Shown here: one piece after another, positions 8,830 through 60,632 of the stretch
Numbering within the stretch: the stretch's first letter is position 1
Layout: each line of letters starts with the position of its first letter
Assembly: GCA_963514005.1 (NCBI GenBank)
Contig: OY740809.1
Location: 22,072,001-22,136,000, forward strand
Reading direction: 5' to 3'
Source of the DNA: Raja brachyura
Lineage: Eukaryota
Length of the DNA: 64,000 nucleotides
Notes under the pieces: model-generated
Databases searched by the model: none
What the model saw: the letters and a program-made list of their open reading frames with translations, nothing else
What the model was told of the DNA's origin: nothing
Made by a program: the position numbers and the translations under genes

Positions 8830-8971
8830 GAGAGGCTGTGCACTTGGCCAGGGATTTTGGGTATGTTTGCGAGACTGAGTTCCCGGCGAAAGCAGCAGCA
8901 GAGTTCTTGACCAGACAGCATTCAGACCCCACTGAGCTCCATGCCCGAAAAAATATGCTTCTTGCCACCAA
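8830..8971 (+). CDS. TFAP2E: Transcription factor AP-2 epsilon, penultimate coding exon (helix-span-helix domain)
   Basis: Acceptor ttcttgcag|GA and donor AA|gtgagt bound a 142-nt exon. It translates (G)[46 protein letters not shown](K), the AP-2 family motif, closest to TFAP2E. Phase matches the next exon. Confidence 0.95.
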
Positions 8972-9075
8972 GTGAGTACCAGATATCAATATTCATATTT
9001 CTCCTCTCATTCAGAATGTAAAGTCTACTTTTACCTGGACTCCTGCTGTTTGGAAAGGACCATTTTGAACATAAA

Positions 9076-17817: not shown

Positions 17818-19004
17818 TGCGAGACTCAGCAAATGTGTGCTCTAAAGGTTTTCGGGGGTCACGTTTGATGTCACGATTGTGCAGAGTTTGGTTCATATTC
17901 AGAAGGTTATCCGAAGGAAGAAGTGTTTGTTTTGGGGTTGAAGCTTGTGGCGGTTTCAGGATTCTCAATACGTCACTGGAGGAGGTTCAGTTCACTGAGC
18001 ATCGATAGAGAGGTTCGAGTGGTGATGAGGCAGGTGTCATTGATGTTCATGTGGAAATTGATTCCGTGTTTCCGGAATACGTTGCTGCGGGCAGCACTGC
18101 GCACAGTGTTTGGTGGGTGGCCTGTGGTACACTGAATGAGCAAAGGTCGCTTGCCAATCTCATTTCCTGTGTGGATTTTCAGGGGCTGTGGAATGTAGCC
18201 CCCCGATGTGTTTTTATTTGCCCACAGGATAGGCTCTAGGTTAGTAATGTTTTGTCCTGGTGATATGCCGGTGCGGTATCTGATGTGTCGTTGTTTATGG
18301 GGGAGTAACTGGCAAATTTCCTTGTCTGGTGTTAATTAATAGGTCATGATGTAATGTTTTTCGAGCATTGCCATCAGGGTATATTTTGTTTAAACTGGAA
18401 TTTGTACACCTGCCAACAACCTTGAACCCACAGGGCTTAACACCGTGATATCATTAAATTTACTTCAAAGAATAACCTTTGTAATATTTCATAGAATTGG
18501 TGTTGCATTGAATCCCTGTTACTGTCACCATTAATTTGACAGCTCTGCTAGTAAGAGGCACTAGGCAAGAAATGACAGTGTTAGGGTTTCAGTGGAGTGT
18601 GATGTTTTCCCCTGTGAAGCTTTCTAGATTGTTTAACACAACCACTGAAAATGGAGCTGCACTCCAGGCAGTGGTGAGTCCTGTAATTTTACTCTGGGAT
18701 CCATTACTGGCTTTGATTGAGCCAAGAGCATTTAAGCTCCATCTGACATGTTATCTATTCACGCGACACAGTTGGATTTAGAAAGACTGACTGAAAGTGG
18801 GAATCAAGAATGACTCACCCCCCCCACCCCCACCCCCCTCCCCCAGTGATGTTTACAGGTAAGTGAATGATGGATCTACTGGAAACAGTAACAATGACAT
18901 TCATTCAGTTACGATGAATAAGACGAGTGGAATCCATGTGCATTGAAATTTATTGCCAATCTGGGATTATTGCCAATCAGGTCTCTGCATTGTACTCTGA
19001 CATT

Positions 19005-19365
19005 CAATAGACAATAGACAATAGGTGCAGTAGTAGGCCATTCGGCCCTTCGAGCCAGCACCGCCATTCAATGTGATCATGGCTGATCATCCACAATCAG
19101 TACCCCGTCCCTTCCTTCTCCCAATACCTCCTGACTCCACTATCTTTAAGAGCCCTATCTAGCTTTCTCTTGAAAGTATCCAGAGAACCGGCCTCCGCCG
19201 CCCTCTGAGGCAGAGAATTCCACAGACTCACAACCCTCTGTGTAAAAAAGTGTTTCCTCATCTCCGTTCTAAATGGCTTACCCCTTATTCTTAAACTGTG
19301 GCCTCTGGTTCTGGACTCCCGCAATAACAGCAACATTTTTCATGCTTCTGACGTGTCCAAACCCT
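19005..19365 (-). mobile_element. CR1-clade LINE 3' end; 130-bp segment repeated at 19523-19654
   Basis: ORF SRTRGHSLRIRGKPFRTEMRKHFFTQRVVSLWNSLP and (CAATAGA)n tail. Confidence 0.85.
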
Positions 19366-19367
19366 TA

Positions 19368-19522
19368 AGGGCCTGTCCCACTTACGCGACCTTTACAGGT
19401 GACTGCCGGCACCCGTGATAGGTCGACGAGATTTTCAACATGTTGAAAATTCAACGGCGACCAGAAAGACGCTACGACTCTTTGGAGACCTCTCATGGTC
19501 ATAGGAGACCGCTCACGACCAT
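19368..19522. mobile_element. Truncated MITE (one GGGCCTGTCCCAC terminus)
   Basis: Same terminal motif and internal TTTTCAACATGTTGAAAA palindrome as the element at 47769-48125. Confidence 0.6.
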
Positions 19523-20763
19523 ACAGTACCCCGTTCCTGCCTTCTCCCCATATCCCCTGACTATGCTATCTTTAAGAGCCCTATCTAGCTCTCTCTTGAA
19601 AGTATCCAGAGACCCGGCCTCCACCGCCCTCTGAGGCAGAGAATTCCACAGACTTTGCCTCGGAGTCATTCCCTTTCTTTCAACTCTGAAGTTGCAGGAC
19701 TGTTGCCCAAATCCCCCGTCCCTCCCCTTTCCTTCCTAATGTAATTGTGACTTAATCTAGTCTAAAACCTTAAGCAGTGAAAGAATCATGAAGAACTTCT
19801 CCTCTCCACGCCGAGCACAGTATTCCAAATGTCCAAAACCTGGGATATGGTAAAGCAACATTTAAACTATTCTGGATTAAGTAATATGTGCAATGCAGTG
19901 ATATGTAATTTATGAAATCAACCAGGTTTAAGTAGCAAGTCAGAAGATTCTAGCAAAAAAGTTGTAAAATACAAACTCCTCATAATATGAAGCAACAATT
20001 CTTTAGATCAGCATTTGTTAATTACGAAGTTGTGGATTAAAAACCCATAATAAAAATTACATGTTTCACAAATTCAGCTATAACAATTGTTTCTCGTGCT
20101 TTGGAGTCCAGATTTATTTCAGGGGACTTCAGTCACTGTCAAATGTGAGGGTTTTGCTGCTGCTATTTCCCCCCAAGCTCTCCCTCTATTAGCCGAACCA
20201 AGTTAACTAACTACATCTGTGTCTGCAATTCCCACGATGCGACCATCCTCGCACAGTGTGAAGAATTTCCGCACGTGAATATGATTTTCTTAGTGCTTGT
20301 GGAAGTGCACCTTTCCTTATCCCGCAATCGGTTCTTTGTTTTTCTGAATGTTGAGGGAAAAGGAGCTGGAGAATGAATGTTAACAGCTTAATTTTTAATT
20401 CAGAGTGTGAAATGTGGTGAACGCACCACCTGTGCTATATTTGCTTTCTGCAAAGAAATCGTGATATATCATTATTCAAAGGAATATTTATTTGGCAGTG
20501 CAAATGTTAAATTGCATTATTTCTCATTTTTTTCCAAATACTTTTGGCAATATTTAAGGAATTTTGTTTTGAGTTCTGTATTAAAGTCATATTCAGCTTT
20601 GTGTTCTGATTTAAAGAGATCTGTGATGGATACAGGATGATGATTTATAGATCCTACACTCAGTTTTATATTCTGAATTACAGACCAAATAGTAATTAAT
20701 AAGCGAGTTTGGTGTTCCGACAGCGCATGCCCAGGTCATAGGTCACTCGCGATAAATATTCTC

Positions 20764-21819
20764 GACATTTGCTGCTGCGTGTGTGCAGACCTGCGTTTCG
20801 CTCGTGGTTGGGGTGGGCCCGGGTCTCCGACGCTATGGGCACTGTTGAGTTGCTGATGGGCCGTCCCCGTCCCCATCCCCGTCCCCTCCCGGGTGTCCCA
20901 TCCCTGTCCGGGGGCAGCCGGTGGTATCCGGGGTGGCCTTGGGCTGGCTGGGTACTGGCGCAAGGGGGAGGCGCTGGCTCCAGCTCAGTGCTGCTTGTCC
21001 CACCTGGTTGGCTGGCAGCCCTGGACTGGTGGCCGCCAGCCCGGGGTGGTGGTGGCCCTAGGGCTTGCAGCCGGCACGGAGGAGGTGCACTGGCTCTGGC
21101 TCGGCTCTGCTCCGGCTCCCGGGGGGCCTGTTCCCCGGCGGGCCGGGGACCGTCGGCTGCGCCTCTCGCCTTGTCCAGTGGCTATTGGTTGGCCCCCTTG
21201 GTATCGGCGGGGGGGGGGGGGCGAGCACCGGTCATCAGCGGGGATGCACACAGGGTGCTGCCGTGGCTCGGCGGGTCAGGCAACATCTCTGTAGAAAGGT
21301 CTCGACCCGAAATGTCACCCAATCCTTTCCTCCAGGGATGCTGCCTGTCCCGCTGAGTTGCTGCAGCGTTTTGTGTGTATCCCCGTTGATGGCTGGTGTT
21401 CGGGTTTCGCCAGCGCCCGGTGGGGTTGGCCGGCGGCCGCTGGGTGGGGCGGGGATTCCTCGGCCCGTTGGGGAGCAGGTTCCTCGGGAGTTGGAGCGGG
21501 GTTGGGCTGGAGTGGCGCTTCTTCTCTGTGCTGGCTGTGGGCTTAGGGCCGGCGATGTCCCATCGGTCCAGGGCTGTCGGCTGGCCCGTCGGGGCAGGCG
21601 GAATTGAGCTGGACTTGGCGCTCCTTCTTCAGTCCGGGGCAGCCCGGACGTCTCCAGCCGCCTCCTGGGCGGGGATGGGACACTCGGGGGGGTGGGGGGG
21701 GGGTGGGGGTGGGGACGGACAGGAACGGTCCAGTGGTGTTTCGGCAGTGCTTACGGCACCGGGAACCCAGATTTGAATCTGGCTGCGGATGAGGCGCAGG
21801 TCTGTGTGCCGAAAATGTC
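20764..21819 (+). repeat. ~1.05-kb GC-rich imperfect inverted repeat (long G-U-rich hairpin) in the last TFAP2E intron
   Basis: Arms ~20764-21299 and ~21324-21819 align as reverse complements along their length, with some indels. For 21115-21149 vs 21457-21491, all 8 of 35 non-Watson-Crick positions are G-U on the + strand. Confidence 0.9.
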
Positions 21820-22307
21820 TCTTCCAAAGTCCAGTCTCTCCCCCTGTCTGCCACTCACATCTGCCCCCCCTCTCTCTCTCTCTCGCTGTTACACCCCGCT
21901 CTCCCACTACCTGGCACTCCCGTTCCTCAAGTTAAATATATATTTACACATAAATTATGAATAAAGATAAGAATGTATACACAGTTTATACAGCCAGCAC
22001 TTTGTTAGCTTTTTCATTTATCGCAAATGACCTTTGACAAATCCCATGATTCCTAGCGTTTTTCAGAATACTGAACTCGCTTATTCTCTGATTGTCCTGA
22101 GGCTTTGTTCACTTAAAAATTAGACCTTGTATCCTCAAAGTCCATTTGCCAATTGTATATTGTTGTTTTAGTTCTGTTACACCAAGGTACACAAACAGAG
22201 AAAAAGAAGATATTGAAATCTTCCATTTTGATGAACTGAACTCTGCGCTAGTGTTGAAGTCATGAATTTATAAACAGGGGCTGTCATTCTGGAAAATGCA
22301 TTTAAAT

Positions 22308-22480
22308 ATGTGTAGGAAGGAACAGTAGATGCTGGTTTACACTGAAGATAGACACAAAATGTTGGAGTAACTCAGCAGGACAGGCAGCATCTCTGGATAG
22401 AAGGAATAGGTGACGTTTTGGGTCGAGACCCTTCTTCAGACTGAGATTCAGGGTAGAGGGAGACACAGAGATAATGAAGT
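22308..22480 (-). mobile_element. Penelope-like hammerhead-bearing repeat copy; further degraded copies to ~22980
   Basis: Family consensus gaaggaa..agatgctgg..gacacaaaatg.tggagtaactcagc..gacgttt.gggtcgagacccttcttcagactg. Confidence 0.7.
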
Positions 22481-24032
22481 GTAATGTATTTAAGCATTTG
22501 GCTTCTAAATAACTCCAGGATGTGCCCTTCTGAAGTCCCTCTCAATATGAACAAAAGTCTAAAGGAATTAGGCTGTAATGAAAAAGTTTTAAAAAACAGC
22601 TGATGCTGGAAATCTAAAGTAAAAAACAATGCTTGAAATACTCAGCAGGTCTGATGGTATCCGTGGAGAGTAAAACAAGTGACATTTCAAGTCAATAACT
22701 TTCCATCAGTAATTGACTTGATGCTGGGGATGGCACAGAGTGTTGGATTAGCTCAGTCGGCCAGGATGCTTCCTAGAAGAACATAAATAGACGATGTTTC
22801 GGGTCAGGACCCTCTTTCCCAAAGCATCGCTTGTCCATCTTCTGCTGAGATTCTGCCGAACCAACTAAACTACTCCAGCACTCTGTGTCGAAACAAAGAA
22901 CTGCAGATGCCTGTTAAAAGAAGGGTCTGGGCCTGAAACGTCATCTATCCATGTTCTCCAGAAATGCTGCCTGACCCGGTGTGGAGGGAGCAAAGGAGGA
23001 GCTAGCAGGGGTACTTTGTAACTTTGTAACTTTGTCAGCTACATTTATGTGGCGACTACTTGTATACCTTGGGTATGCAAGTGAAAAATTCACAGTGTCT
23101 TGTCACATGTGACAATAAAGTATACCATTCCATTCCATTCGGCATGAATCCATTATGGTATATATGTGAGCATGGCCTCTATTCGCTACAATCTGCCACT
23201 GTGAAGTCAAACTGTGGTTCAACATCACGTATCACCACATGAGTTCATGATTTTACTCTTTCCTACTTTCATCATTTTCTACTCAATGTCACTCCACATT
23301 TATCGTACTGGGTGAGGCCAGGCCAGGCCAGCATTTAAAAAAACTCAGATGTGAAATAGTTGTAAATGATCAATTCTGTGGTTTATACTGAGGTTCATGA
23401 GCCATGTTGCTATCATGGTTTATGGTGACATTAGAACTTGTTAATTGAATCATTGCCGAGTAGCTCACTGCCAGACATTTGCATCTGTTATAGTACGTAG
23501 CCTATAATTATTTCACATTTTGTTTCCATATCCTATGGGTATTGTGAGCACGGTAAAACTCATTTAAAGATGTGCCTCTTCGCGTGATCCCTGCACTTGA
23601 CACAGAAGAACACCACTTCTGTTCAAATCATTCCTAAGCCTGCCTATATATTTTTTTATTCTGCGCATTTTGTTTTGGTCATTTTAATTTGCTTCCCAAA
23701 AATGTTTTATCATTTTTCTGTGCACACAGCACCTTCGGGGCATCGAACCGGCAGCTGTTTCCAGGCCTAGGGCCTTATTCAGCTGTCAGCTCGAGCAGCC
23801 CAGCCCATCCCCCTCTGATCTGTTTCCCTTGATGAGCGGTAGCTACTATTGTTTGCTTGGTGCATGATCTAGATCCCTGTCGGGTATTGGGGACCCCCCC
23901 CCCCGTGTGCCACCAAGAATTAGGGTCTGTTTTGTCCAAATGCCCTGATGCTGCAACACAACATGGAGGGGGAATTCAAGAGTCAAAGTGTTTTATTGTC
24001 ATAGGTCCAGAAACCAAACAATAAAATTCCTA

Positions 24033-24256
24033 AGATAGACACAAAATGCTGGAGTAACTCAGCAGGTCAGGCAGCTTCTCTGATGAAAACAAATAGGTGA
24101 CGTTTCTGGTCGCGATTCTTCTTCAGACCGTAGAAGGGTCCCGACCCAAAATATCACCTATCCATTTTCTCCAGTGCTGCTGCCTGACCCACTGAGTTAC
24201 TCCAGCATTTTGTGTCTATCTTTGGTGTAAACCAGCATCTGGTGTTCCTTTTTACT
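24033..24256. mobile_element. Fold-back Penelope-like copy nested in a LINE tail
   Basis: Inverted arms. Degenerate 15-bp TSD ACAATAAAATTCCTA / ACAATGAAATTCTTA at 24018-24032 and 24257-24271. Confidence 0.65.
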
Positions 24257-24969
24257 ACAATGAAATTCTTATTTGCCGCAGTACATGGTACTCTGTAAAC
24301 ACCATAATAGACAATAAAAACGTTCAGGATATTAAAAAAAAGAAGTATTAACAATGCAAAGATAAAAATAATGCCCCCAAGTCTATGGAGTTCACAGTTT
24401 AGTTGGAGGCGTAGTGTTTAACACGCTGGTGATTGTTGGGAAGAAGCTGCTCCAGAACCTGGACATTACAATTTTCAGACTTCTCCATCTTCTTCTCGAT
24501 AGCAGGTGTGAAATGAGAGCGTGGCCAGGGTGGTGTGGGTTTCTGATGATGCTGGCTGCAAGTCAAATTGTGATCTCCACCTTGGAATGAAATGTTTCAT
24601 TTTTAAAAATTTGTAAACACGAACAGAGCAATTGAGTGGGGCCGGCCATCCATAGAAGGATTAGCCTTGGGGTAATTGATTTGAATAGAAAGACCTGGCG
24701 TGGGCAGGACTGCTGGGCAGAGGCTGTTTGCCAGGGAACTAACTAAACACAGACAAATCTGCAAATATACTTTTTCTACGTGAATGCTTCTTATATTAAT
24801 TCATTTTAAATGGTCAAGACATCACGAGAAATAGAAATGGAATTTTAGAAAGATGTTACAAAAAACAGAAATAATTATAATTTAAAAAAAAAATCATGAT
24901 AATGGTTAATTATTTCAAATATCATTAAAACTCCAAAAACAAAAGAACTTTGAAGTGGCATTGAGCAAT

Positions 24970-25795
24970 CATATAGTCACAGAGCACAGAAATCAGGTAT
25001 TTTGCCCATCATATTAAGTATCCTCCTGTCCCATCTGCCAGCACTTGGTCCATTGACTACTTAAATGTTGTGAGATTGTCTTCCTGCAACACCTTCTCAG
25101 GGAGTGCACACTGACTTCAATTACCGTCTGAATAATTTTATTTCTTGAAGCAATTAATCTTCAGATCTCCACTAAACCTTCTATTCCTCACCTTAAACCT
25201 ATGGTCTTTGGTATTAGACACCTCTACTTGGGATAAGGTTTCTGTACTATTTACCCAATCTATGCTTCTTATAATTTTGGGCAGACATGTCTTAGGTTTC
25301 CCATGGGACTCCTTCTACCCAAGGAAAACCCAAGCAGCCCATCCAGTCTCTCCTCATAACTTAAACCTTCAATCCCAGGCAACATCCTTGTGAATCTCCA
25401 TTTCCACTCTCTCTTCTGCAATCATGTCCTTCCTACATTGTGATGACCAGCCCATTTTTGGCTGTGGTTTAGCCAAGACCTCGCTGCACTTATATTCCAT
25501 GGCCAGGCTAATAAATGCAAGCTTCCTGGGTGCTTTCTTTACTGTCCTGTCTACCTATGCTGCCACCTTCAGGGATCTTTGGACTTGTACAACATTTCTT
25601 TGTTCCTCATTCTCCCGTCGGTGACCCCCTGCACAGTATGTGTCGCATCTAATTCGATCCCTAAAATACATCACCTCACACTCATCAGGATCATATTCCA
25701 TCTGCCATTTCTCAGCCCAAATTACCATCTGCCGAAATTACCAGACCAATTACTCCCCACTTTCAACAATGCCACTAATTTCTGTGTCATCTGCA
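24970..25795 (-). mobile_element. Degraded CR1-clade LINE fragment
   Basis: Similar to 17108-17817 (aatcccaggcaacatccttgtgaatctc, gccaccttcaggga). Confidence 0.6.
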
Positions 25796-27240: not shown

Positions 27241-27532
27241 GCAGATCTGTAAAGAATTTACAGATTTATTAGCTCAGGACCGGTCTCCACTAGGAAACAG
27301 CCGCCCGTCAGCCATCCTTGAAGCGGGAGTCCAGAGCTGCCTGACTCACTTCAGCCTGATTACACACGGCTTCGGGAGTCCCGCCATCATTGCTGCATTA
27401 ACTGCCTTCCAGAATTACCTGGTGGAGGCTATAAAGGGGCTGGATAAGATGTTCCTGAGCTCATCCAACAGCCATCCCTCGGGGGAATCCGGGACTAAAA
27501 GCACAGACAAAGAGGCCAAACATCGGAAATAA
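27241..27532 (+). CDS. TFAP2E: Transcription factor AP-2 epsilon, last coding exon
   Basis: Polypyrimidine tract plus ag ends at 27240. Translates [60 protein letters not shown]...KEAKHRK*, stop TAA 27530-27532. The epsilon assignment is supported by the C-terminus and PSMB2 adjacency. Confidence 0.95.
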
Positions 27533-58543: not shown

Positions 58544-59152
58544 CTGAAAGACAAAACAATTACAACTGAATTCAATCAATCCACAATTTCAACATACGAT
58601 TAATGTCAACTGATGCATTTAGTCACAAACAAGCCCAATATGGAAATACAGCACTGGTGAAAGATGGGGTGCATTCGAGTAACTGGGCATTTTCACATCT
58701 GCTATTCCCTTTATCAGCAGTGCATGGAAGAGCAGCAACTGTACCTTTGTCTTAAATGGAGCTCCCTCCCACCCAGAAAATCTTAATAACAGCATAACAA
58801 TTAGAGAGAAAAATGAAGACATGAACGTCAATACTCCTACTCAATTGATATCAGGATACACATGTAGAAAATGAAAAGTGTGTTCACTCCCTGAACGTTT
58901 ATCCAGAGCAGTTGATAATATCAAAACTCAGTAAAAGCTGAGAATGCACTCTTTAAAGGAAACCTTAGTCTTGAACAGACCTAGTGATACCCGTTCAAAG
59001 CACAAGGCCAAAATTACAAGGGCTGTATGTTTTGATGTCAACGTGTGAAAATATAAACATGTGCAGCAAGTTTCAGAAACCCAGAGGTGAATAATGTATT
59101 TTATAAAAAGAACAAATTTTGCTACAGAATTCCACTCGGATTTGGATCTCAC

Positions 59153-59202
59153 CTCTAGCAAGCATTTCTTCAAGAGCTCAATGGCCTCTTCGCGCGTGAG
59201 AT
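59153..59202 (-). CDS. PSMB2: Proteasome subunit beta type-2, 50-nt exon (exon 5 equivalent)
   Basis: tttgcag|AT...GAG|gtgaga. Translates (D)LTREEAIELLKKCLLE, in phase with both neighbouring exons. Confidence 0.94.
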
Positions 59203-60632
59203 CTGCAAACACATTGTTTCAATTTTTGAAATCTTCTCAAATAAAAACAAGCCCCAACCCCCTCCCTCTGCAAAATTAAATAAAGTCCAGACTAGAAAAC
59301 AGAAGTTATCTGACACACAGCTGAACACGGTCCATATGTAAAATAGGGTTTTTAAACAGAATCAGGCCCACTCAAACTGCAAGCTGGAACGAATCAATTA
59401 GTTTTTGGAAATCGAATCGCATCAGAATCCGCCTCCTTTTCCTGGTCCAAACCCGGGAAAAGGACAGGCACTTCTTAGATTCAATTTATTACAAACAGTG
59501 TAATGAGCTCCATCTGCAGATGCTGGCTGCACTTAGCGCATTTCGTTTAACCGGCCTCCTGCTGAGCATTAGATTCATCAATCGAAGTGACACGTGCTTT
59601 TGACTTCTAAGAGTAAAGACCTGTGCTTATTCTGCCATAACGATCCGTGATATAGTCTATTCCACTTAACACAGTGAGAGCAATTTTATTCATTGTATGT
59701 TTCAACAGAAATTTAAGATTAACTCTAAAAGATGAAATGTAGCATTAAGATCGGACAATTCAAAGCTCAGAACTAGTGCACCATGTTATTCCAGAATTCA
59801 TTTTAATTGTCAGAATTATTTTTGTACATTTTATTAGTAAAAACTACTTCAATTGCATTTGTACAATCCAAGCTAAAGTATTTCTTCCTTCATTTGAAAT
59901 GCTTCAGAAGAACTGTGGCTCGTGTTCATCTTAAGTGGCTATAATGTGTTTCAGAATTTACAAAACAAGATCAAATTCTAATTAAGATGGGTTTATAATG
60001 CAATTATAATGCCTGTTTAAGAGGATGAAGGAGGGAAAAAAAGTGACAGGATACTTTTAAAATTTAATTATCTTTCCTTCTCAGGTAAAGAAAATCTTTT
60101 TGCACCTTTTAATAACAGATGTCCACACAGCTTCAATTTTGATTATACCGCAAGGTGATAAAAATAGTTACATTGTTGACATGGCATCCAGAAAAATAAA
60201 TGAACCAAATTAACCACTTTACCCTAAAAGGGAAAACCATTTCAAAATTAATTTGTACATGGAAGACTGATTTTTACCAGCTTTACACAGCTGGCTTCAC
60301 TAAATGTACATTGGCTGCTTCAGAGGAAAGAATTTACTTCCTTCTGGAAACTGACCTTTGGACTGGCATAAAGTTAGCAATAATACCCTGCTCAGCTACT
60401 GAGTGTTACAACAAAGTAAAAATGAAATGGGATGAACTGTTTTGTTGAATTAAGAAATCAATGTTGACTAAATTAGCATAATTAAATAATCGACACTAGT
60501 CATCAGTGGGCAAGTGGCAAAAAATGCAAGCCTGCTAGAACAGAACAGCTACAGATCATTATTGTGTAACCAAGGCTTTTCAATCCTGTGATGCAAAGCA
60601 GATAGAACAAAGGGCTGGAACACAATAGTTCA

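Follow-up and report, generated by a model that had tools for sequence, protein, structure and literature searches.

ADAR-type hypermutation that is read after reverse transcription is known for retroviruses: for the avian retroviruses (Rous-associated virus, avian leukosis virus), the available part of PMC12925331 describes an inverted repeat in which nearly 50% of the A's are changed. Host deaminases also leave marks in transposable elements, and in the APOBEC3 DNA editing of retrotransposons the G>A changes are made on cDNA independently of any fold, as set out in the accessible portions of PMC2873906 and PMC12548423. As far as these portions go, PMC2873906 reports no excess of A>G clusters in DNA traces, and PMC12548423 raises ADAR for one provirus, for which a matching context was not found. 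The RNAs of inverted Alu repeats are hyper-edited, with clustered A>G in TE-derived duplexes and G depleted upstream (excerpts of PMC3197674 and PMC4982230), and the 2016 review among these sources (PMC4982230), in the part at hand, leaves the role of editing in Alu subfamily evolution open. Our literature search returned no DNA transposon family fixed with ADAR-type edits; Repbase and most subscription journals were outside its scope, so absence from print is not established.

Here we analyse a hairpin of the skate Raja brachyura within a window of 64,000 nucleotides (contig OY740809.1, positions 22,072,001 to 22,136,000). The hairpin makes up the interior of a non-autonomous DNA transposon of ISL2EU type (20701-22082), a dispersed element. 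As in the avian retroviruses, A>G changes of one strand occupy both arms of an inverted repeat and would have been read out after reverse transcription. These viruses live by reverse transcription, whereas the changes described here sit in a DNA transposon, are fixed in the germ line in many copies and reach 74% of sites, and a second layer is present on the opposite strand. With APOBEC3 editing the family shares a host deaminase signature frozen in genomic TE copies, but the changes are A>G confined to duplex and not G>A on cDNA. In the inverted Alu RNAs, by contrast, the edits occur in RNA only, and the 3'-G excess is missing here. The element class is ordinary, while the heritable two-strand editing record is not. 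We consider it quite probable that the shared one-strand A>G layer goes back to an ADAR hyper-edited transcript of a perfect fold-back, which would have been reverse-transcribed into germ-line DNA.

To examine the fold-back, 20700-21310 was aligned to 21311-21900 in reverse complement, and two scoring schemes were used, neither of which favours G·T. It is a single structure in which the left arm (20764-21300, plus strand) pairs with the right arm (about 21325-21819, plus strand) around a loop at 21301-21324 (plus strand). G·T mismatches outnumber A·C mismatches 113 to 17 under the first scheme (p=1.4e-18) and 121 to 16 under the second (p=3.9e-21), far from the equality expected of neutral decay in the initial annotation, which had described a G·T-skewed hairpin of about 1 kb and proposed this count; its own example, 21115-21149 against 21457-21491, does contain 8 G·T among 8 mismatches. 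A content in 20764-21819 is 10%. The plus strand of this segment folds to -760.7 kcal/mol, forming 113 G·U pairs and a longest helix of 57 bp, and the minus strand to -515.1 kcal/mol with a longest helix of 12 bp, in agreement with the strand-asymmetric rod claimed earlier. The description of the island as isolated does not hold, as the hairpin belongs to a dispersed repeat family. The window insertion was also recovered in contigs under other organism codes: X2 spans the left junction and pieces of the arms, with a difference of about 1%, and X8 spans both junctions. Since matching arm pieces occur in contigs of two organism codes, and a third code has both junctions (X1 may be the source of the assembly), the hairpin is not an assembly artefact.

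Searches of the skate's own genome with the left arm, the tail and the right arm gave 1451, 1021 and 1614 first-look candidates, of which 40 per query were scored, so that these figures are not copy numbers. Homology among the copies spans 20701-22082 and is bounded by 20-bp inverted repeats, in the window copy the core of the left TIR at 20701-20720 (plus) and the right TIR at 22063-22082 (minus). The AT target-site duplication lies at 20699-20700 and 22083-22084 (both plus) and is present at either end of 52 of the 66 full copies that have both TIR cores; the 66 copies are flanked by A in 60/66 and by T in 58/66, which gives the target A/AT/T. The target preference reaches outwards to C before AATT (31/66) and G after it (29/66), and a 2-bp direct repeat just outside the target is seen in 8/51 copies against 2.8 expected (p=0.005). 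Such a 2-bp outer duplication (11/43, 0/12 and 8/51) was rejected as the target-site duplication, because it came from ends set 3 bp too far out and the real one is the inner AT. The leader at 20721-20763 (plus) contains a subterminal inverted motif at 20735-20757 that is 87% complementary to its partner at 22016-22038 (minus). In longer relatives the leader precedes an exon/donor-like segment and the remnant of a transposase ORF, and it would have had the role of a promoter. The unpaired 3' tail at 21820-22015 (plus), with AATAAA at 21960, is the part best conserved among copies.

The available text of PMC4482050 characterises ISL2EU elements by an A/AT/T target with AT duplication, short TIRs, a transposase with THAP and HTH domains, and a YqaJ ORF. 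Our family resembles this group of the PHIS superfamily in the AT duplication within A/AT/T, the short TIRs, the THAP-like and HTH remnant and the YqaJ ORF. The coding traces come from longer copies with the same ends (L183, L211, L213, L215), whose frames are broken and hold transposase remnants: HTH_Tnp_4 matched in a longer copy with E=3.2e-8 (33.5 bits against a cut-off of 27), THAP with E=1.2e-4 (23.2 bits, just below the cut-off of 23.9), and YqaJ with E=2.9e-11 at L183:3352-3939:-, within the same TIRs of this relative rather than in the window copy and on the strand opposite to the transposase frames. It differs from ISL2EU in being a non-autonomous fold-back derivative, in TIRs that begin with AAG and not GG, and in that the DDE domain was not recovered, with no match in 10 scanned frames of 78 listed from relatives that are broken and internally deleted. 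The initial GG is usual rather than obligatory according to the consulted portions of PMC4482050 and PMC9179366; the latter, to the extent available, reports that ISL2EU was not detected in elephant shark, coelacanth or gar. In the present genome, ISL2EU-type remnants were seen at L183, L196 and L210-L215. One chimeric subfamily (L064, L060, L039, L056, L080) joins the unedited 5' exon/donor-like segment of the long element to the edited hairpin, and some of its copies have an additional 190-bp insert. Five edited copies (L015, L020, L075, L005, L006) have left flanks in common, and two of them, L015 and L020, are without the right TIR and joined to an antisense Penelope-like piece, from which we conclude that a larger composite repeat carries the edited element. 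Neither the captured inserts nor the arm core matched anything in 33 longer transposase-bearing loci.

Parts of the hairpin were acquired from other repeats. A piece of the right arm near 21745-21790, which we take to be SINE-head-like, has 7 copies outside the element. The apex (21243-21381, unstranded) derives from a local high-copy palindromic repeat, which here lacks its centre and may correspond to the 3' end of a Penelope-like element. At L231 this repeat stands in register 3' of a GIY-YIG remnant in the same orientation; this holds for 1 of 8 interstitial GIY-YIG loci, the repeat is absent from 5 array loci, and it is so common that its nearness to GIY-YIG says little. A free palindromic copy lies at 24029-24225, with 94-bp arms that are 81% complementary. 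Its centre presumably contains a hammerhead-core-like motif, for which Rfam gave no match; the 5 Rfam matches in 19000-25000 all fall under the gathering score. In the hairpin apex the motif is broken by the centre deletion. The genome has intact Penelope-like ORFs together with fragments that we assume to be of LINE origin. Many GIY-YIG matches with near-identical scores, lying in 760-aa open frames of Penelope-like type, form tandem arrays near contig ends, and at L222 (G000:C1:490185-493436) a Penelope-like ORF is followed by telomeric CCCTAA repeats, which places endonuclease-bearing elements at telomeres.

Six of 43 full copies have normal A content and balanced mismatches (summed G·T 109, A·C 121), and a search with one of these unedited copies yielded more, including L087, a complete fold-back with nearly equal folding energies for its two strands (-832 and -836 kcal/mol). 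The unedited paralogues whose search had been suggested thus exist, as near-perfect hairpins. The column-wise majorities of 18 unedited copies served as yardstick for 34 edited ones; L031, L035 and L044, which are short or interrupted, were excluded. In the interior of the edited copies A>G reached 2076/3550 against 117/4083 for T>C, and at their ends A>G was 87/2229; the corresponding values in the 18 unedited copies were 50/2144 and 47/2109. In the window copy, G stands at 59 of 88 yardstick A's of 20764-21278 (T>C 1/82) and at 38 of 69 of 21346-21819 (T>C 2/85). Among 136 loci, 123 could be classed, 38 with 0-7% and 85 with 27-71% A>G, in samples of edited and unedited loci that were shaped by the queries used. 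A search with the tail, which takes no account of the arms, found 29 loci; 16 were edited, 1 was doubly changed, 10 were unedited and 2 unscored, i.e., 17/29 edited.

Scored per arm site by the state of most edited copies, A>G was fixed at 113/152 sites, T>C at 0/161, G>A at 2/277 and C>T at 5/278. Outside the stem no A was changed (leader 0/18, loop 0/7 within 21279-21333, tail 0/57; 0/82 together), so the loop does keep its A's as had been noticed. The changes depended on the 5' neighbour: A>G affected 20/20 sites after U, 25/25 after A, 34/48 after C and 28/52 after G, or 45/45 after U or A against 62/100 after C or G (p=7e-8). The initial annotation had asked whether a 5' G is avoided, and G is indeed the lowest of the four. 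On the 3' side no excess of G was found (G 33/53, C 38/47, A 24/27), nor did a 3' G have an effect among sites with 5' C or G (24/44 vs 38/56, p=0.21). On an 800-bp duplex, ADAR1 and ADAR2 show the same order of 5' neighbours, the 5' side being dominant and the 3'-G preference strongest for ADAR2 (PMC3113232, from the text available), and a 3'-G excess is described for cellular editing sites in the accessible part of PMC3197674. The family presents three features of ADAR hyper-editing, namely one-strand A>G far above other changes, confinement to the duplex and U or A over C or G on the 5' side. The A>G polarity that had been proposed from the apex was supported by copies outside the element, in which A is commonest at 15 of 17 edited sites having such copies; the reverse polarity, G>A from a G-rich ancestor, was rejected on the same count. 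The fraction of 74% exceeds the retroviral value of nearly 50% given in the consulted part of PMC12925331, which suggests more than one pass of editing or another process.

All edited copies have one common pattern, which indicates that one edited master spread as DNA. Site frequencies among them are bimodal, and in the median edited copy 90% of the majority-G sites read G (71 copies). Where A is found at such sites, it occurs at the decay rate of ancestral G's, with 0.19 vs 0.17 in CpG and 0.07 vs 0.05 elsewhere. Private G's were in slight excess in one count (60/1360 vs 142/5028, p=0.004), where 11 of the 60 fall on a single site, and not in another (49/816 vs 173/3513, p=0.22). A tree of 40 copies built without A/T columns grouped the edited copies with fold-back unedited ones (support 0.93), and did not recover the edited copies as a single clade.

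A second layer was found in L144, which has T>C in addition to A>G and belongs to a subfamily marked by an insert. Among 30 insert-bearing loci, 20 have a common T>C pattern, 4 have few such changes and 6 are unclear or unmapped; the AT duplication is present in 14/20 loci of this subfamily with both TIRs, and none of the 30 proved to be the source locus of the insert. In the inner stem, T>C affects 13/14 T's opposite G, 6/13 T's opposite A and 0/7 in the loop, with other transitions at 1/120; for A-T pairs against the loop alone the difference is at p=0.05. These T>C changes equal A>G on the antisense strand, made at A·C mismatches and some A-U pairs. In the best reading, this opposite-strand, stem-only layer marks a later subfamily and editing was written back at least twice. 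A third round in L154, L157, L169 and L173 was rejected since the segments are re-copied inverted duplicates of the right arm, and L168, L170 and L174, in which T>C and G>A occur together, were set aside as matches to the opposite arm.

The hairpin was originally placed in an intron on the sense strand, and this was confirmed: it lies in the last intron of an AP-2 family gene, between the penultimate exon (8831-8973, plus; Pfam TF_AP-2 E=1.3e-10, AG/GT ends) and the last coding exon (27242-27532, plus; TF_AP-2 E=2.7e-15, splice site). The 83 ORFs at 9-27 kb had no Pfam match. On the minus strand, an exon-like frame at 58928-59218 resembles the end of a proteasome beta subunit, with no supporting Pfam match, and the neighbouring minus-strand exon gave no informative family; we presume the frame to be PSMB2, a neighbour of TFAP2E. 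Across the genome the G·U strand follows the element, with 41 copies on plus and 43 on minus contig strands, so the match with the AP-2 sense strand reflects how the window copy landed. Since insertion, this copy has decayed evenly (C>T 26/279, G>A 21/277, p=0.54).

In both arms of one strand A's were edited and in the loop and tail they were not, which points to a folded single strand as the substrate; with the 5' rule this substrate suggests ADAR acting on RNA, and fixation of RNA edits needs a reverse transcriptase. ADAR editing followed by write-back could have proceeded as follows. An element with captured repeats would have undergone inverted duplication, and its transcript would have folded, whereupon ADAR may have edited about three quarters of the paired A's. 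A host reverse transcriptase would then have copied the edited RNA. The cDNA would either have inserted together with both TIRs or have recombined with a DNA copy, replacing its interior; chimeric and deleted derivatives are numerous and indicate that the interior is readily exchanged. The transposase would have spread the edited master as DNA, with one copy entering the AP-2 intron and decaying neutrally there. Later, an antisense transcript of a derivative, in which G·U is read as A·C, may have been edited and written back, turning A-T over G·T into G-C. As to a retro-junction, no poly(A) end was found in 56 one-ended loci screened, full copies end in TIRs with the AT duplication, and no common retroelement flank runs through them. 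The TIRs and subterminal repeats could pair, yet are unedited, which counts against ADAR. The initial annotation had named write-back of an ADAR-hyper-edited dsRNA as one of two explanations; the strand, the restriction to the stem and the 5' context bear this out, but the event did not happen at this locus, as the pattern is genome-wide. It had also named a known TE already carrying this exact sequence as evidence against its reading, which is partly the case, the sequence being carried by a multi-copy TE family.

The missing retro-junction, the intact TIRs and the stem-only one-strand A>G would all be accounted for if no reverse transcription took place and ADAR deaminated DNA in inter-arm RNA:DNA hybrids, dI being fixed as G at one germ-line master locus. 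The RNA of one arm is complementary to the sense DNA of the other, and only the arm A's on the transcribed-sense strand would be exposed. In hybrids dA is deaminated by ADARs, best at dA-C mismatches (PMC5389660, in the part available), which fits the second layer. However, such a process predicts strand-skewed partial A>G in unedited fold-backs, of which there is none in 18 (heterogeneity p=0.26), the classes are discrete, and conversion of about 75% of one DNA strand without repair would be hard to reach; we regard DNA editing as unlikely. For the second layer in particular, G·T could have become G-C in an extruded hairpin, through DNA repair or conversion of one arm by the other, and only a single write-back would then remain. 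The change of 13/14 T's opposite G speaks for it, as does the re-copying of arms known in the same subfamily (L157, L169). However, T's opposite A changed too (6/13) and so created new A·C mismatches, some of them in 12/12 and 17/17 copies, for which repair of G·T alone is insufficient, and resolution of G·T to A-T did not occur at a matching rate (G>A 1/53). We find this account doubtful.

The other explanation offered at the outset, an intronic RNA duplex under selection, is very unlikely as the origin of the pattern. Selection would keep an RNA rod on the sense strand of the element or intron while removing A-U pairs, for an hpRNA source or for evasion of dsRNA sensors, and it could draw on the helices of up to 57 bp that the plus strand keeps and the minus strand loses, and on the 17/29 edited copies in the least biased sample. 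However, selection for G·U would also allow C>T, the commonest mutation, which was fixed at 5/278 sites against 113/152 for A>G; it predicts no 5'-neighbour rule; and the copies, the window copy included, decay evenly, many with arm segments lost. The locus-specificity of an hpRNA or a selected duplex is lacking in a multi-copy sequence whose pairing is not kept against decay. Even if selection did not create the pattern, it might influence how well edited copies survive relative to unedited ones. Scarcely credible is an element that itself moves through RNA, as a TIR-bounded retroelement gaining edits in each cycle. The existence of two layers and the AATAAA in the tail would suit it, but near-perfect fold-backs spread unedited (38 loci at 0-7%), edited copies have one pattern (median 90%, 71 copies) with no private editing, and the ends, like the ORF remnants, belong to a DDE-type family. 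A more general reading of ADAR editing with write-back, which we put forward only tentatively, is a class II family with a recurring RNA-to-DNA channel, in which ADAR-edited transcripts of either strand re-enter TIR-competent copies, found subfamilies and ratchet A-T to G·T to G-C. The route would possibly be recombination of cDNA, assisted by the YqaJ exonuclease of the element, or ADAR action on RNA:DNA hybrids between the arms.

The family preserves A-to-I editing as a fossil in the germ line, and the same genome also contains the controls, i.e., unedited ancestors, an edited master and a twice-edited descendant. The 152 scored sites amount to a single-molecule record of editing in vivo, with which ADAR action on the unedited hairpin can be directly compared. 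The finding is relevant to the question of whether there is feedback from RNA editing to the evolution of genomes and TE subfamilies, and it implies that sequence derived from RNA can be taken up and spread by DNA transposons, although these lack an RNA step. If the recurring channel is true, RNA editing would be heritable and would build GC-rich, CpG-rich islands across a vertebrate genome.
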